A stretch of DNA of 56,833 nucleotides. Origin: an uncultured virus (IMG/VR IMGVR_UViG_3300025759_000061). Its lineage: Duplodnaviria; Heunggongvirae; Uroviricota; Caudoviricetes. Within the stretch, counting starts at the first letter, position 1; every line of letters starts with the position of its first letter. The notes beneath the pieces were generated by a model. It saw only the letters and a list, made by a program, of their open reading frames with translations. It was not told the DNA's origin and searched no databases. The DNA is taken from positions 62,001 through 118,833 of IMG/VR virus record IMGVR_UViG_3300025759_000061; one strand, given 5' to 3'. Shown one piece after another: positions 3,979-56,833 of the stretch. Position numbers and translations under genes: made by a program.

Positions 3979-4344
3979 ATGTCTCACAATAGACCAGAGC
4001 ACCCAATGAGTTTCGATGGTAACACAACATATTGGGATAAGTTCAAGAAAACAGCAGACCCCACCAAACCCATTAAACACAGATACATCATCCACGTGAA
4101 CCGGCAACACATTGCCAAGAATGCCAAGGATGGTGGAAACCGTCCAGTGTACACCATCAAGGAGCACATCTCCCCATCCAATATCAAGGTCAGGTATGCC
4201 CGTGAGATTGAGATAGATGGTTTCACAAGGTTGGTATATGATGGGACCCAGTTGAAATGTGGTGCCCGTGCATGGATCGAAACCTCTGGTTCATTAACTC
4301 TGATAGATGAGATGACATTCCAAGAAGCCAAAAATAGTCCTTGA
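3979..4344 (+). CDS. conserved phage hypothetical protein
   Basis: IIHVNRQHI...PVYTIK...CGARAWIET motif recalled from T4-like phages. Confidence 0.75.
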   Translation: MSHNRPEHPMSFDGNTTYWDKFKKTADPTKPIKHRYIIHVNRQHIAKNAKDGGNRPVYTIKEHISPSNIKVRYAREIEIDGFTRLVYDGTQLKCGARAWIETSGSLTLIDEMTFQEAKNSP

Positions 4345-4368
4345 CTCCAGTCTCCTGTGTGCTATTAT
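4341..4368 (+). promoter_or_regulatory. early sigma70-type promoter (near-identical copy at 52657-52684)
   Basis: TTGACT...GCTATTAT; shares cttgactcca..tctcc..tgtgctattatctag with the second copy. Confidence 0.75.
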
Positions 4369-4405
4369 CTAGCCATAGGAACTGAGAAAGAAAGGAAAAT
4401 TTGAT

Positions 4406-5086
4406 ATGGCTCTCGTGAAAAAAGACGGAACTTTGGAGTTCGTTGGTCGGGTAGTGACCATTTATGGTAATTCCCCTCAGATTATGTCAGACATTTGGGG
4501 TAGTGGAATGGTTGCCGAAGTTGTAACAGACTCTGGACACATCAACAAGGTCCAGTTGGTGACTTGGGACATGGGTTCTGAGTATGCCGACTACGACTAT
4601 AAAGCCTGTGTTGCTGATCTGGATGAGGATGCAATCACCATCTACCGGAACAAGATCACGGAAGACAAGACTGCTGATGTCCGGTGGAAGATCGAAACCT
4701 CTGCCAAGGAAATCCGGAAGGGTGACCGGGTTGAGGTTGCACGGGGTCGGACTTCCAAGGGTGCAATTGGTGTGGTCTTCTGGATTGGTGATGGGACCTA
4801 CGGTTCAGGGTACTACAACTCAAGAACTGAACCAAAGTACGGGATTGCCCTCTCTCCTGAGAAAAAGACCATTGAAAAGAATGGTCGGACTTTCGAGACC
4901 TATGCAGACGTAGCTTGGGTGTGGGGTCGGAATGTTGACAAGCTGGACTGGGAGAGTGAAATCGATTACTCCACGGTTGAGCAGACGGTCAAGGACCATG
5001 CAGACTACATGGAAGAGAACATCCGGGAACGGTATGCTGATCATGTCTCATACACTGAAAAGCAAAATGCCCGTAAGGTAGCATGA
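4406..5086 (+). CDS. hypothetical early protein
   Basis: ORF with AGAAAGGA RBS. Confidence 0.8.
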   Translation: MALVKKDGTLEFVGRVVTIYGNSPQIMSDIWGSGMVAEVVTDSGHINKVQLVTWDMGSEYADYDYKACVADLDEDAITIYRNKITEDKTADVRWKIETSAKEIRKGDRVEVARGRTSKGAIGVVFWIGDGTYGSGYYNSRTEPKYGIALSPEKKTIEKNGRTFETYADVAWVWGRNVDKLDWESEIDYSTVEQTVKDHADYMEENIRERYADHVSYTEKQNARKVA

Positions 5087-5093
5087 AAGAAAA

Positions 5094-5146
5094 GGGTTGA
5101 CTCCGGTCAGCCCTTCTGGCATTATGTATGTGTATAGAGAAAGGAA
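5094..5146 (+). repeat. early promoter/stem-loop/RBS cassette copy 1
   Basis: gggTTGACtccggtcagcccttctggCATTAT...agagaaagga. Confidence 0.9.
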
Positions 5147-5150
5147 CTCC

Positions 5151-5315
5151 ATGTACTACATCAAGCAAATTGCAAAAATTCTCAACGTCAATGAAATGGT
5201 TGCCCGTAAGGTTTTCGAGAGGATGGTCCTTGATTTCTCCGAAGCAAGTCAGGAAGCATTTGAACGTGAAGCCCGGTTCATATATAATCGTTATTTTACC
5301 TTCGACAGTCGGTAA
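5151..5315 (+). CDS. hypothetical early protein
   Basis: ATG directly after cassette RBS. Confidence 0.7.
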   Translation: MYYIKQIAKILNVNEMVARKVFERMVLDFSEASQEAFEREARFIYNRYFTFDSR

Positions 5316-8461: not shown

Positions 8462-8538
8462 GCCCGTGTAGCCCAATTGGCAGAGGCAACAGATTCAAAC
8501 CCTGTTCAGTGTTGGTTCAAGTCCAACCACGGGCACCA
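8462..8538 (+). tRNA. tRNA-Leu(CAA), short variable loop
   Basis: GCCCGTG/CACGGGC acceptor, TT-CAA-AC loop, ACCA end. Confidence 0.85.
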
Positions 8539-14344: not shown

Positions 14345-15897
14345 ATGACCAAAAACTTTTACACCAATGTACGTCAGTACAAGGGACACATTCTTTATAG
14401 GGGTGTCCACTTTGATGAGAATGGTAAGCCAAAACGGGTCGTGAAAAGATCAAATATGAGCCTACCATATATTTGAAGAGTAAAGAAGTGACCGGCTTGA
14501 CCAATATTGATGGCAAGCCGGTTATACCTGTCAAGCCCGGTGATATATGGGACGTTTGGAAATACATCAAACAGTACAAGGACGTTGAGGGTTTTGACGT
14601 ATATGGAAACCTGAAACATGAATATTCTTATATCTATGAGAATTACCCTGACATGGTGCCATATGACAAGAAGTTCATTCTTGTTGTAAACCTTGACATT
14701 GAGGTCATGTCTGAAAATGGATTTCCAGACCCATGGGAGTGCACGGAAGAAATGACGGCAATCTCCATGACGTTTAATGATGACAAGATCATCGTGTTAG
14801 GTCATGACAAGTTTGGACTGATGCCGGATGGTTACAAGACAGACCGTAAAAATCTCAAATACATAGAATGTGAATCTGAAGAGCATCTGTTGAGGATGTT
14901 CCTTGAAATCTGGATCAAGAACTGGCCAGATGTTATCACCGGCTGGAATTCACTGATGTTCGATATGCCATATATCGTCAACCGGATCGGTAAGATTCTT
15001 GGTGAGTCCTACATAGACATGTTGTCACCTTGGGGTGTTGTGGAGTATCAGGAACGTGTGAACGTGGAATGGAATACCCGTGATAAGTTCTATAGCATTT
15101 ATGGGGTTGACCAGATCGATTACATGCTGGCATATAAGAAGTTTGCACCAAGCTCCAAACAGCAGGAAAATCTAAAGCTGGACACGGTTGGGTTCAATGA
15201 GTTGGGGATGTCGAAGCTGGACTATTCAGAAGTCAAGAATCTCCACTCATTGTACAAGATAGATTACCAGAAATATCTTGACTACAACGTAAGAGATATT
15301 GATATCGTATCTGGTCTTGACCGGAAGCTGAGTCTGTTTGACCTGATGTTTGCACTGGCATATACGGCCAAGGTAAACTATGAAGATGTGTTTGCACAGG
15401 TTAGGATGTGGGATGCCATTATGACCAATCACCTTATGTCAAAGGGTGTTGTGGTTAATCCCATGAAAGATAGTTCAAAGGATTCACGTTACAAGGGTGC
15501 CTATGTGAAGCCGGTTCTGGTTGGTATGCATGATTATGTTGCATCATTTGACTTGGACGGCCTGTATCCCCATTTGATGATGGGTTATAATATTTCACCT
15601 GAGACGTTCATTCCTGTTGAAAATTATAATGACCAGATGAAAGAGTTTTCACGTGAGAACCCGATCATAACACCAGACAAATTAGTGAATAGGGAATTCG
15701 ATCTGTCAACACTATATCCATGGAAGGTTAACCTGACCCCAAATGGTGAGTTTTTCAGCACCAACAATGAAAGCTTTCTTGGTGAGGTGATGAGAATTCT
15801 CTATGATGATCGGAAGAAATATAAGAGTATGATGATCGAAGAATTGAAGATGCTTGAGAGTATCAAGGCTGAGAAGGTCAGAAGAGGGTTGGAATGA
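14345..15897 (+). CDS. 43A: DNA polymerase gp43, N-terminal subunit (exonuclease + motif A), with an apparent -1 frameshift near 14425-14450
   Basis: MTKNFYTNV...ILYRG N-terminus in one frame, KIKYEPTIY...DIEV, TGWNS..FD, YNVRD, SFDLDGLYP in another. Confidence 0.9.
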
Positions 15898-16994
15898 ATC
15901 TCGAATCCCTTAGTGATGCTGAGTTGTTGAAGCTTGAAGAGACCACAAACAATCTGGCAACCACATACAACAATCTCCAATTAGCCAAGAAGGTTACATT
16001 GAATAGTGCATACGGTGCTCTGGGTAACCGGTTCTATAGGTGGTTTGATGTACGTCTGGCTTCTGCTATTACTGGTGCTGGTGAACTGGCCATCAAGTGG
16101 ATCATCAAGGATATGAACAAGTTCATGAATGATTATGTGGGCACAAAGGATGAGGATTACATTATTGCAGCAGACACGGACTCCATGTATATCCATCTGG
16201 AAAAAGTGTTGAAGAAGGACCTACAGGATATAACAGACAAAAATGTTCTTCTGGACCATATGAACAAATTCTGTGACGAAACGATTCAACCGGTTATCAA
16301 CAAGTCGTTTGAAAACCTGTCGAAATATATGAATTCATTCGAACAGAAGATGGTGATGAAACGTGAGGTTCTGGCTGATCGTGGGATATGGACAGCCAAG
16401 AAGAACTATGTTCTGAACGTCATGGATGATGAGGGTGTCAGACTTAACGAACCAAAGATCAAGATCAAGGGTTTGGCTGTTATCAAATCGTCAACGGCTC
16501 CAGCCTGTAAGGATAGCATCAAGGAAGCCATCAGGTTGATGATGACGGCTGATAATGATGCCATGATACGGTTCATCAAGAAATTCAAAAAAGAGTATGA
16601 TCAGAGACCCTATGATGAACTGGCAGACATATCATCAGTGAACGGCCTTGAGAAATACCATGATAATAGGACCATATGGGGTAAGAAGTGTCCGAAACAC
16701 ACAAAGGGTGCACTGATCTATAACCACCTATTGAAAAAGCATGGCCTTGAGAACACATATGAAGCCATAAAGGATGGTGAGAAGATCAAGTACATCCACT
16801 TGAAGGAACCGAATCCATATGGATTTGAGATTATTTCATTCCATGACCGGATACCTGAAGAGTTTGGGTTGGAAGAATATGTGGATTACACTCTCCAATT
16901 TCACAAAACATTCTTGAAAAAACTCAAGATCATCACGGATGCAATAGGGTGGCAACATGAAAAATCGTCTGATATTAAAAGCTTATTGGAGTAA
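15894..16994 (+). CDS. 43B: DNA polymerase gp43, C-terminal subunit
   Basis: QLAKKVTLNSAYG, AADTDS, KKNY, KIKGL motifs; ATGA overlap. Confidence 0.93.
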   Translation: MNLESLSDAELLKLEETTNNLATTYNNLQLAKKVTLNSAYGALGNRFYRWFDVRLASAITGAGELAIKWIIKDMNKFMNDYVGTKDEDYIIAADTDSMYIHLEKVLKKDLQDITDKNVLLDHMNKFCDETIQPVINKSFENLSKYMNSFEQKMVMKREVLADRGIWTAKKNYVLNVMDDEGVRLNEPKIKIKGLAVIKSSTAPACKDSIKEAIRLMMTADNDAMIRFIKKFKKEYDQRPYDELADISSVNGLEKYHDNRTIWGKKCPKHTKGALIYNHLLKKHGLENTYEAIKDGEKIKYIHLKEPNPYGFEIISFHDRIPEEFGLEEYVDYTLQFHKTFLKKLKIITDAIGWQHEKSSDIKSLLE

Positions 16995-22561: not shown

Positions 22562-22866
22562 TTTCCCGTTACCTTTTTGACAGTTTCAGATATGACCCTC
22601 ACCCACAATTCATATATTCCATACAGTGTAGCAGACACGGCAAGGAATAATGTTGCTGTGTCTCGTGCACTTTTTTTCAACCATATGTAATTACGTTCTT
22701 TTTGGGCCATTTCACTGATAAGGTCCAAATCATTCAACAATTTGAAGATTTCATCCTCATACTCTATCAATGTGATGAATTTTAACAACTTTTCATCACT
22801 ATCGAGTGAATTGGCAAGTCGTCTTACAGTGTCATACTGTTTTTCTGTAAGTTTTGGGGATGCCAT
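22558..22866 (-). CDS. small membrane protein (late)
   Basis: C-terminal TM; CTAAATA on - strand at 22904-22910. Confidence 0.7.
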   Translation of the reverse strand: MASPKLTEKQYDTVRRLANSLDSDEKLLKFITLIEYEDEIFKLLNDLDLISEMAQKERNYIWLKKSARDTATLFLAVSATLYGIYELWVRVISETVKKVTGN

Positions 22867-22878
22867 GTGATTTGTCTC

Positions 22879-22910
22879 TTGACTCTACTGATGGGTGCAG
22901 GTATATTTAG
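22879..22910. promoter_or_regulatory. overlapping + strand sigma70 promoter and - strand late promoter
   Basis: TTGACT-N17-TATATT (+), CTAAATA (-). Confidence 0.6.
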
Positions 22911-22945: not shown

Positions 22946-23227
22946 ATGACAGCTTATGTGGTTTACAACTTGGAAACAACCTACTTGGTCAAAGCCAAGT
23001 CCGGAAGAACACACTTTGAAAGTAAGGGTGCTGCTACCCGTGCCAAGAACGAAGCAGAACGGAAAGAGCCTGAGTATGGGTTTGGTATTACTGATGTGAA
23101 GAACTTCTACAACAACATTGAACTGACCGTGACCCGTTACAATGCCCTGACCGGTGCTCCCTTCGAAGAGACGGTAAACACCCCATACTACTGCTCACCA
23201 TCGTCAGAACATTACCACTGCTCGTAA
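22946..23227 (+). CDS. hypothetical early protein
   Basis: GAGAAAAGGA RBS; C-terminal NTPYYCSPSSEHYHCS. Confidence 0.8.
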   Translation: MTAYVVYNLETTYLVKAKSGRTHFESKGAATRAKNEAERKEPEYGFGITDVKNFYNNIELTVTRYNALTGAPFEETVNTPYYCSPSSEHYHCS

Positions 23228-24316: not shown

Positions 24317-26758
24317 ATGGCTAAAAAACTTTCATATTTTACAAAACCACCATTGGTGGAAGAAGTCCGTATTGAAGAAACCTTCGATATGGATGATTTC
24401 CTGTTGTATGAAAAGTCAATGTTCCCAAATATGATCAGGGATATAAAGGATAAGGTTATGGGTCGTAGAGGCCCAGAGGTTATGTCAAAGGCCCTGTTTG
24501 ATTATGTCAAGCTGATCGACAAGACATCAAAAGGTCCAGCAACAAGCAGAACATCAAACGGTTCTATCAAGGTTAACACCAAGAGCAGACATGCCGTTTC
24601 CATAGCCAACCTTTATCACCTTCCCCCACGTAAATTCATAGAATTCCTCAACAAATCCCTGAAACAGCAGGGGTTTACAGATTACATCGTGGAATCTCTT
24701 GATGAAGATATCTTCATGATGAACGAAGCTGTAGCTCCAATGGTCAACGATGCCAAGAGAGTTTTCTGCACAACCAACATCAAAGAGAAGCAGGCACTTG
24801 TCTCCACCATGGTCGATGAGTATGCCGAAGAGCATATGAAAGGCTCTCTCAAGGCCCATGTGGAGAATATGGCAGACCCTGAGACCCTGAACAAGGTTGC
24901 ATATAACCTGATGTTCAGAAGCAATGAACCACTGATAAATTGTGGTCTGGCTGAAGAAATCCTTTACGAAATGCCGACTGTTTCAGACAGTGATATGAGA
25001 GAAGTCCTGACAGACCTGTCCAGAAAATGGGCTGCTAAAGGTGTCAATTTCGACTTCTCCAAACACTTCAAGGAACGTGTGAATGATGCAAGAAATTCAA
25101 ACCAGCCTATCTCAGTGGATGATCTGAAGACATTTTTCGACAAGATTTATGAAAAGATGGGTACGAAGATCGGTAAAATCCGTATGAGACCCGGTGAAGA
25201 CATGGAAGGTGTGTTCAGTTTCCGTGCCAAGAGTCTCCATGTTCCATTTGTTATCCGTTATGAGAAAGACAACGGTAAGGGTCTTGTACTGCTTGCCCAG
25301 TCTATCATCCGGAAGAAGAAGTTTGCACTTGGTAGAATGGGTGGAAAGCACTTTGTCGTGGAAGATTTCGACAACGGTATCACAATGCAGCTTGGCAACA
25401 CCGACAAGATCACAGAAGACCATGGTGCCGGGTTCATGGGGACATCTGACCTGACCAAGAAATACATGAATGCCACACCGGGACAGGATGAGAACGGGGA
25501 ATGGAAGATTGCCTATAATGATTATGAGGAAGAATGGGCTGAGTTTGATGGTAATCCGGGTGTTCACACAGACAACAAAGAAAAGAAGAAGATGACCATG
25601 AAGACACTCAAGCAGAAGATCACCGAAGCTAACGTCAGGGGTAGATCACCACGTAGTGTTGGTTTGAAGGTTGGTGCTGATGGAGTGTTAGATGGTGGAA
25701 CAGTCAGACCTGTGAGTAAGACCAGAACCCGTGGCAACATGGGTCGGAAGAATGATCCTGCACGTTCAAAGAAGGTTGATGATGGCTCCACAAGAACACA
25801 GGTTAATAGGGCTGCAAAATCCAATCCAAGGCAACCACGGGTGAACTCGACTGCAAAAGGTGGCCAGCCAACTGATAGTGTCCAGTCTCGTACATCAAGA
25901 TCAAACAACACAACCGTAGCCAAGGCCCGTGAGAGAATTGCAAGACGGCAGGAGAGACAGGCTGCTTCAAAAGCTCGTTCTGCTGGTGTTAAGCTAAAAC
26001 CAACAACAGGTGGTAGAGACAGTCCGGAAACCAACAATACTGCAACTAAACCACAGGCAGGACCGGCAAGGAATCCAAGGTTCAGACAGGTTGGCCAGAA
26101 AACCAATCCACGGGCTGCTACAGCACCAAGCACTGTTAGAACACGTGGCAATATAGGTCGGAAGACTGACCCGGCTCGTGCTGTTGGTAAGCCAACAACT
26201 GGCAGAGACAGTCCTGAGACCAATAACACTGCAACTAAACCTAAAGTCTCAAGACAGCAGGCCCAGAAGAGAAATGGTGCTACAGCTAAAACCACAACAA
26301 AATTGGCTCAAGCAACAAGTGTGGGATCAAATTCGAAGAGACCGGATCGTGCTAGACCCGGTGCTACAGCTAAAACTACAACAAAATTGGCTCAAGCAAC
26401 CATGGTTGGCTCAAATTCAAGAAGAACAGGTGCCCAAGGGCAGGGAAATCAGGTAAATAGAGCTAGGAAGGCTGGGGATCAACATCCACCGTCTGTTGGG
26501 GTGGCTAAAAAGCCGGGTGATCAACATCCAGTCAACAAGCCAAGCATTGCTAATGCACCAAAGCCAAGAAGCAAGCCAGCAGTGCCGAAGCCAGCAGTGG
26601 CAAAGAGAACAACAACCATCTCCAAGCAGAAGCCTAAGTCTGGTGGGCAGACCACATACAAAGCCAATTACAAAGGTGGACAAGGCCAAAAGGCTGTTTC
26701 ACTGAGTCGAATTAACCAAAACACAAGAACCAGAGCACCAAAGGACAGAGTACGATGA
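24317..26758 (+). CDS. large multi-domain late protein with very basic, repetitive C-terminal half (probable head-internal protein)
   Basis: GAGG RBS; FSKHFKERVNDARN domain; K/R/T/P-rich repeats. Confidence 0.8.
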   Translation: MAKKLSYFTKPPLVEEVRIEETFDMDDFLLYEKSMFPNMIRDIKDKVMGRRGPEVMSKALFDYVKLIDKTSKGPATSRTSNGSIKVNTKSRHAVSIANLYHLPPRKFIEFLNKSLKQQGFTDYIVESLDEDIFMMNEAVAPMVNDAKRVFCTTNIKEKQALVSTMVDEYAEEHMKGSLKAHVENMADPETLNKVAYNLMFRSNEPLINCGLAEEILYEMPTVSDSDMREVLTDLSRKWAAKGVNFDFSKHFKERVNDARNSNQPISVDDLKTFFDKIYEKMGTKIGKIRMRPGEDMEGVFSFRAKSLHVPFVIRYEKDNGKGLVLLAQSIIRKKKFALGRMGGKHFVVEDFDNGITMQLGNTDKITEDHGAGFMGTSDLTKKYMNATPGQDENGEWKIAYNDYEEEWAEFDGNPGVHTDNKEKKKMTMKTLKQKITEANVRGRSPRSVGLKVGADGVLDGGTVRPVSKTRTRGNMGRKNDPARSKKVDDGSTRTQVNRAAKSNPRQPRVNSTAKGGQPTDSVQSRTSRSNNTTVAKARERIARRQERQAASKARSAGVKLKPTTGGRDSPETNNTATKPQAGPARNPRFRQVGQKTNPRAATAPSTVRTRGNIGRKTDPARAVGKPTTGRDSPETNNTATKPKVSRQQAQKRNGATAKTTTKLAQATSVGSNSKRPDRARPGATAKTTTKLAQATMVGSNSRRTGAQGQGNQVNRARKAGDQHPPSVGVAKKPGDQHPVNKPSIANAPKPRSKPAVPKPAVAKRTTTISKQKPKSGGQTTYKANYKGGQGQKAVSLSRINQNTRTRAPKDRVR
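25998..26400 (+). repeat. internal coding duplications (TTGRDSPETNNTATKP x2; GATAKTTTKLAQAT x2)
   Basis: Near-identical DNA at ~25998-26052/~26190-26242 and 26276-26316/26360-26400. Confidence 0.85.
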
Positions 26759-34246: not shown

Positions 34247-34654
34247 ATGTCTATAGAGACACCACCGGAAGGCTTCCAGAAGGAACTTGAACCGGGTAAA
34301 GAACCAAACGAAATACCGAAACCAACACGGAGTCGTAATTTCAGAAGACGGTCCACCATATCAGACAGTAACAGGGTCTGGACACTGGTTGAAACGAGTC
34401 CATTGGAAGACAGTAGGCTGAAACGGTGGTGGAGACCGTTCATGGCATGGCAATACATATTGGTGTGCCTGTTTGATTTCATCATAGCACCAATCCTGAC
34501 AATGGTTTTCTTTCAGGGCAACGAGACAAGCTATGTACAATGGGTTCCACTAACCATACAAAATGGTGGGTTGTATCATTTGTCCATGGGGGCAATCATG
34601 GGTATTTACACATGGTCCCGTGGCCAAGAGAAAATGTCACATATAGAGAAGTAA
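34247..34654 (+). CDS. holin-like membrane protein (GTA 3TM holin-like)
   Basis: WWRPFMAWQY...FDFIIAP...GAIMG...WSRGQEK. Confidence 0.7.
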   Translation: MSIETPPEGFQKELEPGKEPNEIPKPTRSRNFRRRSTISDSNRVWTLVETSPLEDSRLKRWWRPFMAWQYILVCLFDFIIAPILTMVFFQGNETSYVQWVPLTIQNGGLYHLSMGAIMGIYTWSRGQEKMSHIEK

Positions 34655-50471: not shown

Positions 50472-51418
50472 AAAACGTTTTCATCACATTCTCACTAACC
50501 GTCATGATCATGATATTTGGAACACTGTACCTGTTGAACGAAAATACAGTGGAGTCTCTTGTCAAAAGGAATGTCAACTCTGTTTATCTCGTAGAGAGTG
50601 AAAGTATCAATAAAGAAGGTAAGAAGGGTGTTGGAATGGGCACGGGGTTCCTTTTCAATAAGGAATATGTTGTGACTAATGCCCACGTTGTTGGGAATGC
50701 AAAGGTTGTCACCTTGATTAGTAAAGATGGGAAGAAAATCCGGGTGCCGGTTGTTGCTACGGATGTAGATGCAGATGTTGCAGTGGTCCGGTTGGTTGGT
50801 GAGAATGCTAAAAATCCCCCCAGAGTTCTGAGATTTTGCAGACGTGATGAGATTGTACTGGGTGAGGATGTAATTGGTATCGGACACCCATGGGGTTTGA
50901 TCTGGACGATCACACGTGGTATTGTGTCCGGTTATGACAGGTTTGCCGGATCAGGACGATCCGTACCATTGGTCCAGACCGACACGAAAATCCTTCAGGG
51001 TAATTCTGGTGGTCCATTGATATCCGTAAAAAACGATTGTGTTGTAGCCATGAATACAATGGTGAATGTTGCTGATCAGACAAAAGGCAGATTCGGCAAC
51101 ATCCCATTCTCTATTGATGGTGATTATCTCAGAACCCGTATCCATGACCTGATCAAACATAAGAAGATTAAGAACCTGATTCTTGGAATCCAGTTCGATA
51201 GTGACAAGGGTTTGTATGTCAAGGTGGTTGTGCCGTTCAGTCTGGCAAGTAAAATAGACATGAGGATCGGTGATATCATCCATTCTATCAATGGTAAGCC
51301 GTTGACAGACGTGATGGTGTTGAAATCCACCCTGTATAAAATCAGGCAGGATGAGAAATTTATCGTTACAGTTCAAAGGGATGGAAAAAAATTGAACATT
51401 TTTGGAAAAAACTCTTGA
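50468..51418 (+). CDS. HtrA/DegP-like trypsin protease with N-terminal TM and PDZ domain
   Basis: TNAHVV, DVAV, GNSGGPL; GDIIHSING. Confidence 0.92.
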   Translation: MKNVFITFSLTVMIMIFGTLYLLNENTVESLVKRNVNSVYLVESESINKEGKKGVGMGTGFLFNKEYVVTNAHVVGNAKVVTLISKDGKKIRVPVVATDVDADVAVVRLVGENAKNPPRVLRFCRRDEIVLGEDVIGIGHPWGLIWTITRGIVSGYDRFAGSGRSVPLVQTDTKILQGNSGGPLISVKNDCVVAMNTMVNVADQTKGRFGNIPFSIDGDYLRTRIHDLIKHKKIKNLILGIQFDSDKGLYVKVVVPFSLASKIDMRIGDIIHSINGKPLTDVMVLKSTLYKIRQDEKFIVTVQRDGKKLNIFGKNS

Positions 51419-51443
51419 CTCTTTGAGAATGTTCAGGTAGAAC
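51415..51443 (+). promoter_or_regulatory. sigma70-type promoter of ncRNA unit
   Basis: TTGACT-N17-TAGAAC. Confidence 0.6.
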
Positions 51444-51470
51444 TGTAATCAAGAAAGAAGGAAAGAACAA

Positions 51471-51608
51471 ATCAAGTGCTTTGATGGGTTATGGGGTTTG
51501 GCCCCCGTCGATAACCACCACCGTGAAGTTCCTTGTGGTTAAGTGAACAAAACAGTGATCAGATGGCCCGGAAGTCGAGAGCCGGGGTAGCCTTTCAAAG
51601 CACTTGAT
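51471..51608 (+). ncRNA. 138-nt structured RNA of unknown family
   Basis: Perfect 14-bp closing stem ATCAAGTGCTTTGA/TCAAAGCACTTGAT; internal hairpins; no ORF. Confidence 0.7.
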
Positions 51609-51618
51609 AAAGAATTTA

Positions 51619-51710
51619 TGGTTGTGGTCGTTTAATGGAAGACAGTTGATGATTATCTAATCCTTTCTCTAATCATCAAAAGATGTTGGTTCGACTCCAA
51701 CACACAACCA
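51619..51710 (+). ncRNA. tRNA-like RNA with extended anticodon arm carrying an anti-SD loop
   Basis: TGGTTGTG/CACAACCA stem, D-arm GTTTAATGGAAGAC, T-arm GTTGG-TTCGACT-CCAAC, 10-bp arm TTGATGATTA/TAATCATCAA with loop TCTAATCCTTTCTC. Confidence 0.8.
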
Positions 51711-51720
51711 ACCCTATTAG

Positions 51721-51752
51721 CTAGAGGTATTTTCTGTCCTTTCTCCCTCTAG
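51721..51752 (+). ncRNA. hairpin with second TCCTTTCTC loop
   Basis: CTAGAGG/CCTCTAG stem, loop TATTTTCTGTCCTTTCTC. Confidence 0.7.
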
Positions 51753-51760
51753 GAAACTTG

Positions 51761-51797
51761 ACACCCCTTGGATTAATTTCCATAGGGGTGTTTTTTT
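51761..51797 (+). terminator. Rho-independent terminator closing the ncRNA unit
   Basis: acacccct..tgga/tcca..aggggtgt + T tract. Confidence 0.88.
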
Positions 51798-51852
51798 GTT
51801 GACACCAATCTCAGATATGCTATTGTGTAGACATAAGAGGAAAGGACACATT

Positions 51853-52032: not shown

Positions 52033-52050
52033 CTAGAAAGGAAACAAGTT

Positions 52051-52329
52051 ATGATACTGAACAAGCCAATTATCCGTGTTGAGCCTGCCGATGGTACAGA
52101 TGGTCTATCCCGGTTCTACACGAGCCTGAAACCTGCACTGAAGTATGCAGTCCAACAGGTCCGGAAGGGTGTTGATGGTCCTGACTATGGGTCACAAGCC
52201 TATGTGTCGAGTACGGATATTGACTTCAAGTCCCTGAACGTGTTCCGGAACATTGGTTCTTCCAAAGTGATAGCCGACTATCACAAGGATGATGGAACTA
52301 TCGGTTACTATGATCTGGGAGACCTGTAA
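52051..52329 (+). CDS. hypothetical early protein
   Basis: AGAAAGGA RBS. Confidence 0.7.
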   Translation: MILNKPIIRVEPADGTDGLSRFYTSLKPALKYAVQQVRKGVDGPDYGSQAYVSSTDIDFKSLNVFRNIGSSKVIADYHKDDGTIGYYDLGDL

Positions 52330-52330
52330 G

Positions 52331-52660
52331 ATGTGTGAAGTTCTGACATTTGAAGAGTTTGCTACCCAACGTGGTCTTGCACCATCATGGGGTGATGCCG
52401 GTCTCCATTCAGGTGCTGCACATGTGCCGAAAAGATCACGGAAACGTCATCTCCAACTGGTAGCAGAAAAAGATGCTGCACTGCAACGTGCCCGTGACCT
52501 GTTGAGGGATGTTTATGCTGGTCGGGTGGAACAAGGTTTGATCAAACCACCAAGCCACTACCAGAGAATCCGAAAGACTGCCATGGGTCATCAGGATAAT
52601 GAATCTGTCCAAGCTGCCCGTAAAATCCTCTTGAAAACATATGGTGAAGAAATCACTTGA
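52331..52660 (+). CDS. hypothetical protein
   Basis: GGAG RBS; GHQDNESVQAARK. Confidence 0.7.
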   Translation: MCEVLTFEEFATQRGLAPSWGDAGLHSGAAHVPKRSRKRHLQLVAEKDAALQRARDLLRDVYAGRVEQGLIKPPSHYQRIRKTAMGHQDNESVQAARKILLKTYGEEIT

Positions 52661-52684
52661 CTCCATGTCTCCATGTGCTATTAT
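52657..52684 (+). promoter_or_regulatory. early promoter (copy of the 4341 promoter)
   Basis: TTGACT...GCTATTAT. Confidence 0.75.
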
Positions 52685-52723
52685 CTAGTTATAAGAGAGA
52701 AACAGAGAGAAAGGAACTAAGAA

Positions 52724-53104
52724 ATGGGTATGAAATTTGAAGAGTATCAAATAGTACATGGAATTGACCTGAAACAGGGTTGGGTAGCAACCAATGCACA
52801 CAAGCCAGTGAAGATCAACAAGAACACTAAAGATAAGTATGAACTGTGGGTTGATGGTGATTATAAAGCCCAGTATGATACATTTGACATAGCAACCCGG
52901 TATGCAGAAGCACAGGTTTCCTTCCACACACCATACCAGAACCCAGTCAAACCCGACACAGTGGAACTGACTGCTTGGGATGTTGCAGCACTGGAACACT
53001 CTGTTAACGTAGCCATCGAAGCCGGAAGCATCCACCGGGAAAGTGGTGAAGCCCTGCTGAAAAAGTTCAAGGGTGCCTTTGGTGTGACCCTCAAATATTC
53101 GTGA
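52724..53104 (+). CDS. hypothetical early protein
   Basis: AGAGAAAGGA RBS. Confidence 0.75.
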   Translation: MGMKFEEYQIVHGIDLKQGWVATNAHKPVKINKNTKDKYELWVDGDYKAQYDTFDIATRYAEAQVSFHTPYQNPVKPDTVELTAWDVAALEHSVNVAIEAGSIHRESGEALLKKFKGAFGVTLKYS

Positions 53105-53110
53105 AAGAAA

Positions 53111-53172
53111 GGGTTGACTCCGGTCAGCCCTTCTGGCATTATATGGGTATAGAGAGAAACACGAGAAAGGAA
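53111..53172 (+). repeat. early cassette copy 3
   Basis: gggttgactccggtcagcccttctggcattat...gagaaagga. Confidence 0.9.
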
Positions 53173-53178
53173 CTCCCC

Positions 53179-53448
53179 ATGAAGAATTTGGTCCCACCGG
53201 TAGTTAACATGAACGGTAACAGCAAAAGTGATCTGGTCAATCAGATCATGAACATTGCCAACCAGTTGGAAGATGCTGTTGGTGCTCTCTACAGCACGGA
53301 CATTTACCACGGTCGGAATTTCCAGACCTGCCACAATTCGGAAGAAGTTCGGGATGCTGCCATTGCTGCCTTGGGTGAACGGATTGAAGCCTTGCAGGAG
53401 ATGAAGATGGATTTTGTCCGGATGGGTATGGAAGTCTCCGGACATTGA
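53179..53448 (+). CDS. hypothetical early protein
   Basis: ATG after cassette RBS; PVVNMNGNS...HGRNFQ. Confidence 0.75.
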   Translation: MKNLVPPVVNMNGNSKSDLVNQIMNIANQLEDAVGALYSTDIYHGRNFQTCHNSEEVRDAAIAALGERIEALQEMKMDFVRMGMEVSGH

Positions 53449-53455
53449 AAATTAG

Positions 53456-53517
53456 GGGTTGACTCCGGTCAGCCCTTCTGGCATTCTCTGGGTATAGAGA
53501 GAAGCAAGAGAAAGGAA
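53456..53517 (+). repeat. early cassette copy 4
   Basis: Same core; -10 CATTCT. Confidence 0.9.
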
Positions 53518-53525
53518 ACGAGACG

Positions 53526-53774
53526 ATGACGAAACTTTCACCCAACCAGATTGAGACCATGAAAACTCTTTCCAACCATGTTGGTGAAGAAGTTTGGGTT
53601 CTCACCAGCCAAGCCACTGCCAATGTTCCTAGTAGCTTCGTTCGTAAAGCAGTGACCACAACCAAAAAACCCACTCTTGCAGGTCTGGAAAAAAAGGGTT
53701 ACATTAAAATCGTATCCACATACTGGAAGGGTGCAACAATCAAAATATTGAAAGGGTATGATGATGACATTTAA
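53526..53774 (+). CDS. hypothetical early protein (possible winged helix)
   Basis: LSPNQ...TLAGLEKKGYI. Confidence 0.7.
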   Translation: MTKLSPNQIETMKTLSNHVGEEVWVLTSQATANVPSSFVRKAVTTTKKPTLAGLEKKGYIKIVSTYWKGATIKILKGYDDDI

Positions 53775-53793
53775 CCAATGGAATGAAAATTAG

Positions 53794-53857
53794 GGGTTGA
53801 CATGAGTCGGCCCTTCTGGCATTATGTATGTGTAGTCAGAAAACAGAGAGAAAGGAA
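53794..53857 (+). repeat. early cassette copy 5 (loop variant ATGA)
   Basis: gggttgac-atga-gtcggccc retains pairing. Confidence 0.88.
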
Positions 53858-53864
53858 CTCCAAA

Positions 53865-54044
53865 ATGACTTTTACAGAAGCCCTTCAGATTATCCATGAC
53901 GAATATGGTCAGGACACTTTGGTTGCACTCGAAAACATCCAGCATGATCTGGATGATGATGGAGACGGTTGGGTGGGAACCGAAGTCCGGGAAGCCTATG
54001 ATGTTGCCATGGGTGGTTTCCGGAACTTGTTTGCTCCAGCCTGA
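53865..54044 (+). CDS. small early protein
   Basis: ATG after cassette RBS. Confidence 0.7.
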   Translation: MTFTEALQIIHDEYGQDTLVALENIQHDLDDDGDGWVGTEVREAYDVAMGGFRNLFAPA

Positions 54045-54052
54045 AAAGAAAA

Positions 54053-54116
54053 GGGTTGACTTCGGTCAGCCCTTGTGGCACTCTCTGGTCATAAGAGAGA
54101 AACACGAAGAAAGGAA
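54053..54116 (+). repeat. early cassette copy 6 (loop variant TTCG)
   Basis: gggttgac-ttcg-gtcagccc. Confidence 0.88.
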
Positions 54117-54121
54117 ACCAA

Positions 54122-54298
54122 ATGTTCAAGATTGAATTTGATACCGGAAACGATGCTTTTCAGGATGGTCTGGGTGATCTGGAGATTGCTCGTATCCTCT
54201 CACACCTCAAGAACAACATTCTAAATGGTATCACTGAGGGTGGTGTCTACGATATGAACGGTAACAAGGTTGGAACCTACGAATGGGAGCAGTCATGA
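54122..54298 (+). CDS. small conserved phage protein (58 aa, not in ORF track)
   Basis: MFKIEFDTGNDAF...EIARIL...DMNGNKVG. Confidence 0.75.
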   Translation: MFKIEFDTGNDAFQDGLGDLEIARILSHLKNNILNGITEGGVYDMNGNKVGTYEWEQS

Positions 54299-54459
54299 GT
54301 AAGATTGAAGAGAAGAAGAACAAACGTATACACGAAAATCCCGGATTGTACGGGTATCGTGAAGGGATTGGTCCGGAAGAGATTGATCAGTTTGAAGCAG
54401 AGTTGGATAAACTCTATGGTCCTGCTGAAACCATCACACTCACGAAGAGGTTCAAATGA
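54295..54459 (+). CDS. small hypothetical protein (54 aa, not in ORF track)
   Basis: ATGA overlaps at both ends, GGAG RBS. Confidence 0.65.
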   Translation: MSKIEEKKNKRIHENPGLYGYREGIGPEEIDQFEAELDKLYGPAETITLTKRFK

Positions 54460-54680
54460 GCAAATTCAACTGGGATGATGTTGTGTACAAAGACCCACGT
54501 GGGAAGAACAACACAACTTTCGTTGTAACCCATAGGGACATAACCGGTATGGTTGGTCCACAAGACAAATACTCCATGTGGGTTCTCGACAAGGGTAGTA
54601 AGGTCTTGGACGATCTTGGATCACACATCTCAATTGATGGTGCAAAAGCATTTGCAGAACACAGGGGTCTTGTAGGATGA
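54456..54680 (+). CDS. hypothetical protein
   Basis: GAGG RBS, ATGA overlap. Confidence 0.7.
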   Translation: MSKFNWDDVVYKDPRGKNNTTFVVTHRDITGMVGPQDKYSMWVLDKGSKVLDDLGSHISIDGAKAFAEHRGLVG

Positions 54681-54919
54681 AACCACTGGATGACACAAAA
54701 GCCGACCGGAACAAGAGGATTCTTGAACAGGTCCGGAAACTCACACTTGGTGATGTCCGTGAACATCTGGAAAATGTTGATGGACTCATGTGGATTGAAG
54801 TCAACATTCTTGATCCAATCAATGTGAGCCGGAAGTTTGCAGAAGATGCAGAAGACATCATGTTCAGGGAAATTGATGAGTTGTCAATTGAACAAACCCT
54901 GAAAGGTTTTATGGGTTGA
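54677..54919 (+). CDS. hypothetical protein
   Basis: ATGA overlap; stop codon lies inside the next cassette. Confidence 0.7.
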   Translation: MKPLDDTKADRNKRILEQVRKLTLGDVREHLENVDGLMWIEVNILDPINVSRKFAEDAEDIMFREIDELSIEQTLKGFMG

Positions 54920-54975
54920 CTCCGGTCAGCCCTTGTGGCATTCTCTGGGTATAGAGAGAAACACGAAGAAAGGAA
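54913..54975 (+). repeat. early cassette copy 7
   Basis: Same core and agagagaaacacgaagaaagga leader. Confidence 0.9.
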
Positions 54976-54976
54976 T

Positions 54977-55318
54977 ATGAAAATGGGATATGGTTTGACT
55001 GTAAAAGCTGATGAGACTCTGGGACTGATCCAGAAGAATTTCTCAGCCGGTGATGGTTCTTCAAACAGCATCAAGTTTCCAAACGGATTGACTGGGTTCT
55101 TTGAAGTGAGCCGGAAGGATCAGCCAGATGGTGGGGTTGCCGGAACCGTGCAACGTCAGTTGAATGCCAAGGAAAAATCCTACTGGGAAGCCCGTAACGT
55201 TGAAGTGACAGACACTATGGTGGTGCCTGCCGGGTCGTTCAAGATCAATGGTGATGGTAAGGTCATCCGGTTTGCCGGTCTGCCAGTTGCCAAGATCAAC
55301 AAGGAGCTTGGAGCATGA
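54977..55318 (+). CDS. hypothetical early protein
   Basis: After cassette RBS; GSFKINGDGKVIRF. Confidence 0.75.
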   Translation: MKMGYGLTVKADETLGLIQKNFSAGDGSSNSIKFPNGLTGFFEVSRKDQPDGGVAGTVQRQLNAKEKSYWEARNVEVTDTMVVPAGSFKINGDGKVIRFAGLPVAKINKELGA

Positions 55319-56595: not shown

Positions 56596-56624
56596 CATTC
56601 GTTCAGAGAAGTGCCATAAATAGT

Positions 56625-56833
56625 CTTGTTAACGTTGAAGGAAACAAAAAGCACTTAAGACTGGGGGGCAGTACCCCACATCTCCACCATGAGCACATTG
56701 AAGTGTTGGCTGTAGAACAAAGCACTCTCGATGTTAGACAGTTTTGTAAAATGACTGATGTGCTCTTGATGGGGATGAAACAGGATCGATTAGGTGAGTA
56801 ATGAGTAACTGGAGTTAACTGGTTGGCCGACTG
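56625..56833 (+). ncRNA. ssrA: circularly permuted (two-piece) tmRNA, truncated by window end
   Basis: GAC-TGGGG-GGCAGTA-CCCCA-CATCTCC-ACCA (to 56689), intervening hairpin, then GGGGATGAAACAGGATCGA (56771); G3.U70 pair. Confidence 0.9.

Follow-up and report, generated by a model that had tools for sequence, protein, structure and literature searches.

A predicted non-decoding tRNA-shaped RNA and its putative terminator-ended trailer in a large T4-like phage, with identical loop words complementary to the ribosome-binding sites of a class of small genes

Background

The C4 antisense RNA of phages P1 and P7 acts by pairing over the ribosome-binding-site region of phage messages. In T4, early messages are recognised by way of their Shine-Dalgarno region and silenced by RegB and RegA, and the T4 tRNA cluster also yields two stable RNAs, species 1 and 2, which are processed by RNase P and have no known role. 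For 3'ETS-leuZ of E. coli, MALAT1/mascRNA and the t-elements of plant mitochondria, a tRNA or tRNA-like fold recruits RNase P or RNase Z, freeing a functional flanking RNA; in YrlA, the ends of the RNA form a Ro-binding stem. Ponchon and Dardel reportedly swapped the anticodon stem-loop of a tRNA for a foreign stem-loop, with the tRNA body providing for processing and nuclease resistance.

Processing of C4 by RNase P goes back to Hartmann et al., 1995 (PNAS 92:5822; cited in PMC4919922). AbcR1/2 and the cuckoo-type sRNAs expose C/U-rich words in loops and have many targets at initiation regions (PMC4152367, PMC4615179), and an engineered "tRNA scaffold" for recombinant RNA appears in PMC3753655.

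The module described here, a tRNA-shaped RNA followed by a terminator-ended trailer, resembles C4 in being a small phage RNA that RNase P is predicted to free from a longer transcript. C4, however, lacks the cloverleaf form with its D and T arms, has a single target operon and serves lysogenic immunity. The module, by contrast, belongs to a lytic T4-like phage, keeps the tRNA frame in full and combines a pair of identical seeds with some 16 candidate targets; the Rfam C4 model does not match the locus, either at the gathering threshold or at E up to 10. The module shares with AbcR1/2, the cuckoo family and mmgR C/U words repeated in hairpin loops and then an intrinsic terminator, but those RNAs are chromosomal, lack a tRNA body and carry seeds of the CUCCCA/CCUCC type. 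Its terminator-ended trailer recalls the tRNA-linked sRNAs; the tRNAs of 3'ETS-leuZ are ordinary, however, while the tRNA-like part of the module is non-decoding and has its functional word in common with the trailer. The scaffold of Ponchon and Dardel was designed in the laboratory; the module would be its counterpart in nature. Shut-off by RegB depends on a protein, an endoribonuclease with GGAG as its cutting site, whereas the action proposed for the module is RNA-based. Like tmRNA and YrlA, the module is a non-decoding RNA that retains a tRNA acceptor/T module, but tmRNA is set apart by its tag reading frame and pseudoknots (and the phage's own tmRNA lies elsewhere), and the topology differs from that of YrlA because the RNA ends of the module form an acceptor stem; no tmRNA or Y RNA match was found at the module site in Rfam at E up to 10.

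Results and Discussion

The phage and the surroundings of the locus

The source phage is large, T4-like and from uncultured water bacteria, with a complete genome of 161,858 bp; the window, meaning the whole stretch of DNA analysed, covers 56,833 nucleotides of it. The genome is tightly packed, with ORF calls over about 90% of its length, and ARAGORN identifies 26 tRNAs and one tmRNA. The tmRNA is of the permuted alpha type and runs from window position 56598 to the end; the Rfam tmRNA models match the window only at 56628-56833. The phage tRNA-His lacks G-1 and has A73, features that we take to be linked to Alphaproteobacteria, and on these two RNAs the phage looks adapted to alphaproteobacteria. 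A search for hosts by way of the tmRNA tag led to two MAGs, one alphaproteobacterial and one of the Oligoflexia, both without a 16S gene.

A RegA homologue is encoded (PF01818, E 2.2e-39). No member of the RegB family was found among the 180 phage proteins scanned for domains, nor any TROVE domain among the same number (30 + 150, with about 90 ORF calls outside the scan). Next to the locus lie the gene of a protease with trypsin and PDZ domains and small ORFs that have no Pfam match; no candidate gene for a binding protein was found beside it. The genome contains no copy of GCG, CGC, GGAGG or CCTCC, and a literature search on total avoidance of GCG brought up no report.

The tRNA-shaped body

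51620..51709, + strand: non-decoding tRNA-shaped RNA (from Rfam, the fold and the lack of an encoded CCA)
51620-51626 / 51703-51709, + strand: acceptor stem, as read from the sequence
51621-51627 / 51702-51708 plus the pair G51620:C51709, + strand: acceptor stem in the Rfam register
51630-51643, + strand: D arm
51646..51679, + strand: extended arm at the anticodon position, with a perfect 10-bp stem (51646-51655 / 51670-51679)
51656-51669, + strand: 14-nt loop of the extended arm, UCUAAUCCUUUCUC
51661..51669, + strand: seed 1, UCCUUUCUC, the complement of GAGAAAGGA
51685-51701, + strand: T arm with loop TTCGACT

A sequence-only reading of this DNA had described a normal D arm, T arm and acceptor-like stem around a 10-bp stem with a 14-nt loop where the anticodon arm should be, and no CCA at the canonical position. 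All of this is borne out. Positions 51621-51709 match RF00005 over model positions 1-71, the full length, with 34.6 bits (cut-off 29) and E 1.9e-5, and the same element has E 1e-6 in the search of the complete genome; 25 nt stand in place of six model positions. U8, the GG of the D loop (G18G19) and the TTCGA of the T loop are kept, and the minimum-free-energy structure is the cloverleaf (-27.1 kcal/mol, z -2.99; two of 200 shuffles as good). The acceptor is followed by AACCC (...CACAACC AACCC) rather than by the CCA that is encoded in 26/26 ARAGORN tRNAs, and the canonical anticodon arm, with its 5-bp stem, 7-nt loop, U33 and anticodon, is absent. ARAGORN calls neither a tRNA nor a tmRNA at 51.6 kb, and the element is not listed when Rfam is run over the whole window at the gathering threshold. 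That it is a tRNA mimic unable to decode is thus supported. Among the phage's own tRNAs, tRNA-Gln(UUG) has the closest body.

The second seed and the terminator

51721..51752, + strand: hairpin 2, a 7-bp stem (CUAGAGG/CCUCUAG) with an 18-nt loop, UAUUUUCUGUCCUUUCUC
51737..51745, + strand: seed 2, UCCUUUCUC, a 9-mer identical to seed 1, in the loop of hairpin 2
51760..51797, + strand: intrinsic terminator (G+C-rich hairpin, then 7 U)
51799..51826, + strand: early-type promoter (TTGACA, 16 nt, TG-n-TATTGT), belonging to the transcription unit that follows

The two copies of the seed lie 76 nt apart, each within a hairpin loop, the second ahead of the intrinsic terminator. The 9-mer TCCTTTCTC occurs only twice on the + strand of the 161,858 bp, both times in the module locus, and of the 24 intergenic pyrimidine tracts of at least 9 nt only the two in the module contain the seed word. 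When both loops were shuffled with their composition preserved, they shared any 9-mer in 1382 of 200,000 trials. Hairpin 2 and the terminator fold together with -30.0 kcal/mol (z -3.34); the terminator is missing from the list of a simple scan because its stem has a mismatch. The mmgR/suhB model (RF00519) aligns to 51725-51804 with 21.3 bits and E 0.062, below its gathering cut-off of 41 bits. In shape, then, the trailer 3' of the tRNA-shaped body is a terminator-ended sRNA, and the generic features of a trans-acting anti-Shine-Dalgarno sRNA are present: a seed exposed in a loop, an intrinsic terminator and complementarity to initiation regions.

The complementary word at the ribosome-binding sites of small genes

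52035..52042, + strand: AGAAAGGA, ribosome-binding site of the gene starting at 52051

The exact reverse complementarity between TCCTTTCTCT (51661-51670) and AGAGAAAGGA that had been pointed out earlier is confirmed, the final T lying within the stem. The complement of the seed, GAGAAAGGA, has 11 copies in the genome, and all 11 are in a ribosome-binding-site window; for AGAAAGGA, an ORF start follows 16 of the 17 copies. Among the 8-mers in the -24..-3 windows of 267 crude ORF calls it ranks first, and it stands upstream of 16 of these calls, against 88/267 with GGAG or GAGG. The copies in the window, at 4389, 5138, 52035, 52708, 53164, 53509, 53849, 54108 and 54967, are all nine at a ribosome-binding site, with a start codon and then an ORF of 54-226 aa. 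The full 10-mer had been assigned to the starts at 5151, 52724, 53526 and 53865, and is indeed found at 5136, 52706, 53507 and 53847; of the shorter matches proposed, AGAAAGGA precedes each of the starts at 4406, 52051, 53179, 54122 and 54977, and the one-gap match at 22946 is seen as well.

These ribosome-binding sites lie in repeated sigma-70-type promoter/leader cassettes of small genes, and seven AGAAAGGA genes are found within 3.2 kb downstream of the promoter that follows the module. By promoter type and analogy with T4, and on that basis only, the cassette genes may be an early class; the claim that the loop targets early-gene ribosome-binding sites accordingly stands as to the specificity of the word for small cassette genes, while "early" is a presumption. 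Predicted duplexes between the seed and the AGAAAGGA-type initiation regions range from -13.9 to -17.1 kcal/mol, with a median of -6.8 over the 267 ORF calls. A G stands immediately 5' of AGAAAGGA in 11/16 of the ribosome-binding-site copies, which are not independent events since the cassettes are paralogous, and it would form a base pair with the final C of each seed. Since the two loop words match the ribosome-docking sites of about 16 small early-type genes, the module probably regulates those genes.

A possible mode of action

The reading preferred here, to which slightly less than an even chance is given, is that the module is a tRNA-scaffolded, terminator-linked antisense RNA that would occlude the early-class Shine-Dalgarno sequence; its origin, as part of the same reading, may have been a tRNA. 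The observations behind it are the fold, the identical seed pair, the uniqueness of that pair in the genome, the confinement of the complement to ribosome-binding sites and the one conserved relative. What we infer of the transcription, processing, pairing in vivo, direction of repression and timing is as follows. The tRNA body would help the RNA to fold, stabilise it and provide sites for cleavage, by RNase P 5' of G51620 and, because no CCA is encoded, by an RNase Z-type activity just after the acceptor. One product would be a tRNA-shaped RNA of about 90 nt, its lengthened anticodon stalk exposing UCCUUUCUC in an open loop; the other would be a trailer RNA of about 85 nt with UCCUUUCUC in a second loop and an intrinsic terminator as its end, much like an Hfq-type sRNA. 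Both seeds would pair with (G)AGAAAGGA, which would itself be an extended Shine-Dalgarno sequence for the 3'-terminal bases of 16S rRNA and appears to be used only by the 16 or so small genes behind repeated promoter/leader cassettes. Such pairing would cover the ribosome-binding site and turn down the cassette gene class, leaving genes with GGAG or GAGG sites unaffected, and the scheme would be an RNA counterpart of the early-mRNA shut-off by RegB in T4. Of the earlier proposal of a tRNA-scaffolded anti-Shine-Dalgarno RNA, the mimic and its complementarity to the ribosome-binding-site word have therefore held, while silencing stays conjectural. It counts against the antisense reading that a role in shut-off is less obvious should the RNA and the early messages be produced at the same time, and that its promoter candidate (see below) is weak. 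A search for RNA sequencing runs that include the locus returned none, an outcome that speaks neither for nor against expression.

A bolder version is possible but doubtful: that phages repeatedly build tRNA-scaffolded anti-Shine-Dalgarno RNAs, and that here a two-seed RNA switches off one of two ribosome-binding-site "dialects", the early AGAAAGGA as against GGAG/GAGG for the rest, in place of a RegB-type shut-off and in a genome purged of GGAGG/CCTCC and even of GCG/CGC. Were the reading right, nature would have its own form of the laboratory "tRNA scaffold", and a lytic phage would be timing classes of genes through ribosome-binding-site sequence by means of an RNA; the module would also give a non-decoding job to the phage "odd tRNAs" that tRNA finders discard, and would explain why CCUUUC(U) is retained in enlarged loops at the anticodon position in unrelated large phages. 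The system would be compact, with one RNA, one 9-nt seed and about 16 leaders.

Relatives and similar RNAs

In X7, a variant phage from a different sample, the module (51613-51806) is 99% identical, with two substitutions and a TT insertion, and sits about 7 nt behind the 3' end of a real tRNA in completely different flanks. One substitution, A51649G, turns an A-U pair of the stem into G-U and so keeps the pairing; both loops are unchanged, and the terminator has 9 U as against 7 U. As evidence, the one change that preserves the stem and the constancy of the loops weigh little, because the only relative found is 99% identical. Sequence from run X6 covers only parts of the stretch and has no informative differences.

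More distant searches gave little. The exact 25-mer from the T arm and acceptor occurs in one stretch of IMG/VR, from the same phage; a D-loop plus T-loop pattern with the anticodon arm left free retrieved nine stretches from JGI metagenomes, with the element in one of them, again the same phage. By blastn, neither the locus, the module nor the other tRNA-like family described below matches deposited phages, and the intergenic region has only short T-arm matches to 230-odd retrieved loci. The adjacent protease is found in IMG/VR only in the identical phage and has among 117 matches one 41% relative, on a 1.4-kb contig; against deposited phages it gives only matches of the cellular DegP type.

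Unrelated tRNA-like bodies whose loops contain CCUUUC(U) are found in other large phages, also uncultured. In one independent tRNA-like family, gathered without use of the loop word (22 loci, 15 of them unique), CCTTTC is kept in 14/15, inside an otherwise variable loop; the RNA is flanked by an ORF on either side, and 4-5 nt separate its 3' end from the start codon that follows. The pattern AGAAAGGA-N(4-10)-ATG occurs three, one and two times in three complete genomes of that family, against five, zero and three for a control, so that a many-gene regulon is not general for such RNAs. A search for CCTTTCT with a T arm gave at least 117 loci, at least 32 of them strictly tRNA-framed and unique; in at least 11 of these the word sits in an enlarged loop. 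The reversed control, TCTTTCC, gave at least 115 loci, at least 32 strict ones and at least about eight with enlarged middles (folds read by eye), and among the matches listed this contrast is too weak for a claim of enrichment. A first motif scan was discarded, conserved coding sequence dominating it (83 of 119 matches at one spacing). A full-text literature search found no description of such RNAs.

Alternative explanations

The loops might instead copy the 3' tail of the host 16S rRNA (UCCUUUCU) and titrate a factor that binds the tail or pyrimidines, such as an anti-Shine-Dalgarno nuclease or toxin, ribosomal protein S1 or another RNA-binding protein, rather than phage messages; this is considered unlikely. 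The alphaproteobacterial 16S ending invoked in the sequence-only reading is supported as a class of tail, GGATCACCTCCTTTCT being present in 31/61 sampled genomes from the class of an alphaproteobacterial MAG (one of the 31, G040, being unpublished). The seed consists of the last 8 nt of this alphaproteobacterial 16S gene end plus one base, so complementarity to Shine-Dalgarno words is expected from mimicry alone, and the phage, by its tmRNA and tRNA-His, looks adapted to alphaproteobacteria. The convergence of unrelated phage tRNA-like bodies on CCUUUC(U) also fits a universal target better than it fits leaders peculiar to one phage, and with CCTCC at zero copies, and thus unwritable in this genome, a truncated mimic would be the only one possible. 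The ninth base, however, speaks for the leaders: in 12 sampled 16S-type gene ends, CCTTTCT is followed by A in 10/12, by G in 2/12 and by the seed-final C in 0/12, whereas the matching G is present at 11/16 of the ribosome-binding-site copies, which fits pairing between seed and leader better than plain mimicry of 16S. The sequence 5' of the 8-mer is unlike 16S, moreover, and no candidate binding protein is encoded beside the locus.

It is similarly improbable that the module serves processing and termination only, with the tRNA shape as an RNase P / RNase Z signal that sets neighbouring RNA ends, hairpin 2 and the terminator as an end unit, and the loop words as incidental, left over perhaps from an early leader in inverted orientation. 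Its position is suggestive: it ends a transcription unit directly 5' of an early promoter, in X7 a real tRNA lies about 7 nt upstream, and the RNA of the other family, set between ORFs with a start codon 4-5 nt on, looks like punctuation. Hairpin 2 with its 3' stem also approximates the reverse complement of the leader ACAGAGAGAAAGGA, at about 12/14 positions by eye. A cutting signal, on the other hand, has no need of a perfect 10-bp stalk and an open 14-nt loop, and two identical loop-exposed 9-mers that are the sole copies in 162 kb would go unexplained, as would the CCTTTC kept within the variable loop of another family.

That the element is a decaying pseudogene, a duplicated tRNA-Gln made functionless by a palindromic insertion in the anticodon arm, is very unlikely. 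Such an origin would account for a body closest to tRNA-Gln(UUG), for the loss of both anticodon and CCA and for rejection by ARAGORN, but the acceptor, D and T stems and the tertiary positions G18G19 and TTCGA are intact, the element is 99% conserved between wholly different flanks with a pair-preserving change, the 9-mer is duplicated in the neighbouring hairpin, and the genome, about 90% under ORF calls, leaves little room for debris.

Slighter still is the chance that the module is a decoy for a host defence directed at tRNAs, such as an anticodon nuclease, which the enlarged loop would absorb or block. Phage tRNAs do neutralise tRNA-cleaving defences, according to PMC11464382 and PMC11555353. 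The phage studied here makes a large investment in tRNAs, with 26 of them and a tmRNA, but the loop is unlike a normal 7-nt anticodon loop, and neither the second, non-tRNA hairpin with the identical word nor the exclusive location of the complement at ribosome-binding sites would be explained. An intron-containing or editable tRNA, spliced to a normal decoder, is hardly credible in spite of the extra 19 nt lying exactly in the anticodon arm, as bacterial and phage tRNA introns are to our knowledge group I introns, with a length of at least about 200 nt, Rfam at E up to 10 gives no intron family match, the arm pairs perfectly and has no bulge-helix-bulge, no 19-nt excision leaves (by eye) a 5-bp stem with a U33-N3-purine loop, and CCA is lacking, unlike in all 26 decoders. 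The intron-containing or decayed tRNA that had been named at the outset as the refuting case is judged unlikely.

The region upstream of the module

51415..51443, + strand: weak sigma-70-like promoter candidate (TTGACT, 17 nt, TAGAAC)
51451..51467, + strand: AAGAAAGAAGGAAAGAA, a purine tract towards the 5' end of the putative transcript, resembling the early leaders
51471..51608, + strand: separate structured RNA domain of about 138 nt, family not assigned

The promoter candidate overlaps the stop codon of the protease gene and is cassette-like, but without the TGnTATTAT -10 element; it was not flagged by a consensus promoter scan, and that it drives the module is a surmise from sequence. In the fold of the putative full-length 356-nt transcript (-119.9 kcal/mol, z -4.8), the purine tract is predicted to pair with the second anti-Shine-Dalgarno region; the tract is not conserved in the X7 variant, where a tRNA sits upstream. 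The 138-nt domain had no match in an Rfam search at E up to 10. A small ORF within it (20 codons from 51484) was rejected, because the X10 variant lacks its ATG. The domain is closed by a perfect 14-bp helix (51471-51484 / 51595-51608) and folds with -57.8 kcal/mol (z -4.34; 0/200 shuffles as good), and on the X10 contig the changes G51496A and C51502T are compensatory within the hairpin at 51493-51505.

Genome and possible host

The record holding the window is 118.8 kb long, the window being its final 56.8 kb, and the same phage is represented by G001, a complete contig of 161,858 bp with terminal repeats. The sole difference between window and G001 is one extra C in the latter near window position 14441, ~30 nt upstream of the first polymerase ORF; at the RNA locus, 461/461 aligned columns are identical. 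The phage is T4-like, with every gene on one strand. Using Pfam, a split family-B DNA polymerase, a gp41-like helicase, the gp45/gp44/gp62 clamp system and gp32 have been identified, along with RNase H, ribonucleotide reductase, ThyX, PhoH and a homologue of the RegA translational repressor; among deposited sequences, gp43 has its best matches in cyanophages (~39% identity). G001 also has genes for 26 tRNAs and for a tmRNA of the permuted alpha type; among the species genomes scanned, just 2 share the start of its tag.

Window 14473-15897: family-B DNA polymerase, exonuclease/N-terminal part, overlapping the next ORF (Pfam)
Window 15894-16994: family-B DNA polymerase, C-terminal part, the second overlapping ORF (Pfam)
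Window 56598-56833, running off the end (G001 93112-93492): two-piece (permuted) alpha-type tmRNA, tag ANDNFAPMALAA
Window 8462-8538, G001 22813-22888 and G001 34505-34580: leucine-anticodon tRNAs

The three leucine-anticodon tRNAs (CAA, UAG, UAA) are 76-77 nt long including CCA, and so are without the extended variable arm that a bacterial tRNA-Leu should have. The tRNAs called in the phage include none for serine; there are a Tyr-like tRNA of 84 nt and two more weak tRNA-like matches. The tRNA-His (G001 24678-24752, outside the window) has A73 and is without G-1, the form found in a group of Alphaproteobacteria, and hence a hint as to the host.

A tRNA-like RNA and a second seed hairpin

The element at 51620-51709 had been described from sequence alone as a tRNA mimic with normal D and T arms, a 10-bp anticodon stem and no CCA, and each part of that description is upheld. 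The Rfam tRNA model matches over its full length at 51621-51709 (34.6 bits, cut-off 29), the middle of the element taking up 25 nt vs 6 in the model; ARAGORN called no tRNA there in either the window or the G001 run. The predicted fold is a cloverleaf. The Rfam register sets the acceptor one position off, giving a G-A mismatch and one additional pair, G51620:C51709.

51620-51626 / 51703-51709, + strand: acceptor stem, 7 bp (predicted fold)
Within the element, + strand: D stem, 4 bp, GG in the loop (predicted fold)
51646-51655 / 51670-51679, + strand: anticodon arm, a perfect 10-bp helix with cap UCUAAUCCUUUCUC (predicted fold)
Within the element, + strand: variable loop, 4 nt (predicted fold)
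Within the element, + strand: T arm, loop TTCGACT (predicted fold)
51721-51752, + strand: hairpin 2, 7-bp stem and 18-nt loop (fold)
51737-51745, + strand: seed 2, the 9-mer UCCUUUCUC, identical to seed 1, in the loop of hairpin 2, 76 nt downstream
51760-51797, + strand: strong intrinsic terminator, following hairpin 2
51471-51608, + strand: structured RNA domain of ~138 nt closed by a 14-bp helix (fold z -4.34)

TAT lies directly 5' of G51620, as AAT or TAT precedes most true tRNAs of the phage. CCA is encoded in 26/26 of the latter, while the element is followed instead by AACCC. With the arm removed, it is closest to the phage's own tRNA-Gln(UUG), sharing an identical AGATGTTGGTTCGA stretch, which hints that it may have arisen by duplication of a phage tRNA.

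The second seed hairpin and the terminator are an addition to what had been noticed before. Genome-wide, TCCTTTCTC has just two coding-strand copies, those in these two loops, and among 24 intergenic pyrimidine tracts of at least 9 nt only these two contain the word; composition-preserving shuffles of both loops gave a shared 9-mer in 1382/200,000 trials.

Variants delimiting the module

Contigs from four public runs were compared with the locus. A 234-nt contig from run X7 matches 51613-51806 with three differences: A51649G, by which one A-U pair in the long stem becomes G-U; the unpaired change G51753A; and two additional T in the terminator tail. Its sequence 5' of 51613 comes from a genuine tRNA, of which it has the 3' end with CCA, in place of the 138-nt domain, so that the unit comprises the tRNA-like RNA, hairpin 2 and terminator; in that variant phage the module is the end of a tRNA operon, and the 138-nt domain lies outside what is conserved. 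The domain has no Rfam match. A contig from run X10 covering it has 7 substitutions, including the compensatory pair G51496A / C51502T, and one deletion. A 20-codon ORF considered within it was rejected, its sole ATG being gone in the X10 variant; together these changes indicate a structured non-coding RNA of its own. Searches of IMG/VR, JGI metagenomes and deposited phages gave no second lineage of the module.

The complementary ribosome-binding word

The loop had also been proposed to complement a shared RBS word, and this is borne out. Of 17 coding-strand copies of AGAAAGGA in G001, 16 sit 2-9 nt ahead of an ORF-opening start codon, as do all those in the window (9/9 ahead of an ORF start), and no other 8-mer is as frequent in the -24..-3 windows taken from 267 crude ORF calls. 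The longer GAGAAAGGA has 11 copies in the genome, every one of them within such a window; GGAG or GAGG precedes 88/267 of the ORF calls. Predicted duplexes of either loop with AGAAAGGA initiation regions have energies of about -13 to -17 kcal/mol, vs a median of -6.8 over the 267 ORF calls.

These sites fall in two families of repeated promoter-plus-leader cassettes, with a purine-rich leader (ATAGAGAGAAAC..AGAAAGGAA) behind each type:

Cassette family 1: TTGACTCC...TGCTATTAT
Cassette family 2: GGGTTGACTCCGGTCAGCCCTTCTGGCATTAT, with a short hairpin lying between its -35 and -10

Clusters lie at 25-33 kb, 41-42 kb and 88.5-91.5 kb of G001, the last directly downstream of the RNA locus, with one more cassette site at 153.7 kb. 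Cassettes at window 4341-5151 and 52658-54977 and at G001 25.8-32.5 kb stand upstream of many small ORFs, for which no Pfam matches were found. From their sigma-70-type promoters and by analogy with T4, the cassette genes are probably early.

Relation to the 16S rRNA and word avoidance

In a sample of genomes from the class to which an alphaproteobacterial MAG belongs, 31/61 contain GGATCACCTCCTTTCT (30/60 without one flagged as unpublished), many of the rest probably being assemblies without rRNA; the reversed control gave 0 matches. Taken as the 16S tail, with the mature rRNA presumably ending where GGATCACCTCCTTTCT ends, its last eight bases pair with AGAAAGGA. A decoy resembling that tail is a rival to antisense action. 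In 12 fetched copies, one of them unlike a 16S end, CCTTTCT is followed by A ten times, by G twice and never by C. C terminates both seeds, and G precedes the RBS word in 11/16 copies; the ninth position therefore suits seed-leader pairing better than pure 16S mimicry, with the caveat that the cassettes are paralogues.

GGAGG/CCTCC has 0 copies in the genome (a Markov model predicts ~54, composition 152), so a full anti-SD is not writable in it. GCG and CGC are likewise absent from both the 161,858-bp genome and the window, and all 4-mers containing them have 0 copies vs ~260-525 each predicted by composition; CpG consequently occurs solely as HCGD. ACTAGT, AGATCT and AGTACT have 0 copies each. 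The avoidance is strand-symmetric and thus acts at the DNA level; restriction pressure may lie behind it, or a need to escape a nuclease of the phage itself, which encodes a SegE/GIY-YIG-type nuclease and an HNH nuclease. A literature search found no paper on total GCG avoidance.

Proposed function

Most economically, the module can be read as a two-seed antisense regulator whose tRNA frame would serve processing and stability. RNase P would cut 5' of G51620; CCA is an anti-determinant for the RNase Z-type endonuclease, so its absence would leave the 3' side open to that enzyme, whose cleavage would separate off the terminator-ended trailer, giving a second sRNA. Both RNAs would then occlude the AGAAAGGA-type Shine-Dalgarno of cassette genes. 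In the full-length transcript a 5' purine tract (51451-51467), absent from the X7 variant, is predicted to pair with seed 2. The sole promoter candidate for the locus is weak (TTGACT, 17 nt, TAGAAC), and the module may be transcribed instead by read-through from the upstream PhoH-protease genes. Besides the 16S-tail decoy, the alternatives are a pure processing signal, a pseudogene, a defence decoy and an intron.

The sequence-only observation has been confirmed in its tRNA frame and loop complementarity and extended by the second seed; its interpretation as a tRNA-scaffolded antisense RNA is somewhat strengthened, being plausible and unproven. A full-text literature search found no description of natural phage tRNA-scaffolded anti-SD RNAs, and in the passages searched of a jumbo-phage review the Ro/Y-RNA partnership was the only match. 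The object is plausibly a variation on the anti-SD sRNA, the RNase P-processed phage antisense RNA and the tRNA-linked sRNA.

tRNA-like bodies in other phages

The matches listed in a scan for CCTTTCT set 5-24 nt ahead of a T loop include several tRNA-like bodies, unrelated to one another, whose middle loop is enlarged and contains the word. One family (D arm CTAGGTGGGACTAG) was re-collected independently of the loop, giving 22 loci with 15 unique sequences:

L249-L270, in IMG/VR (longest contig 244 kb): CTAGGTGGGACTAG family, 81-86-nt tRNA-like RNAs with a 17-25-nt CU-rich loop and CCUUUC core

CCTTTC is kept in 14/15 unique sequences, other loop positions being variable, and CCA is absent. 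On one side lies a small acidic ORF whose RBS, AAGAAAGG(G)A, complements the loop, and on the other an ORF with its ATG 4-5 nt past the acceptor end, which suggests tRNA-type punctuation yielding a nearly leaderless message. The reversed control word also retrieves odd tRNA-like genes among the matches listed, and AGAAAGGA-type RBSs show no enrichment in three complete genomes of this family; both count against over-reading a wider class. Four other viral contigs (L314, L356, L361, L391) carry tRNA genes of 114-117 nt in which the body is normal and the anticodon region is longer by ~45 nt, a further kind of enlarged-arm tRNA.
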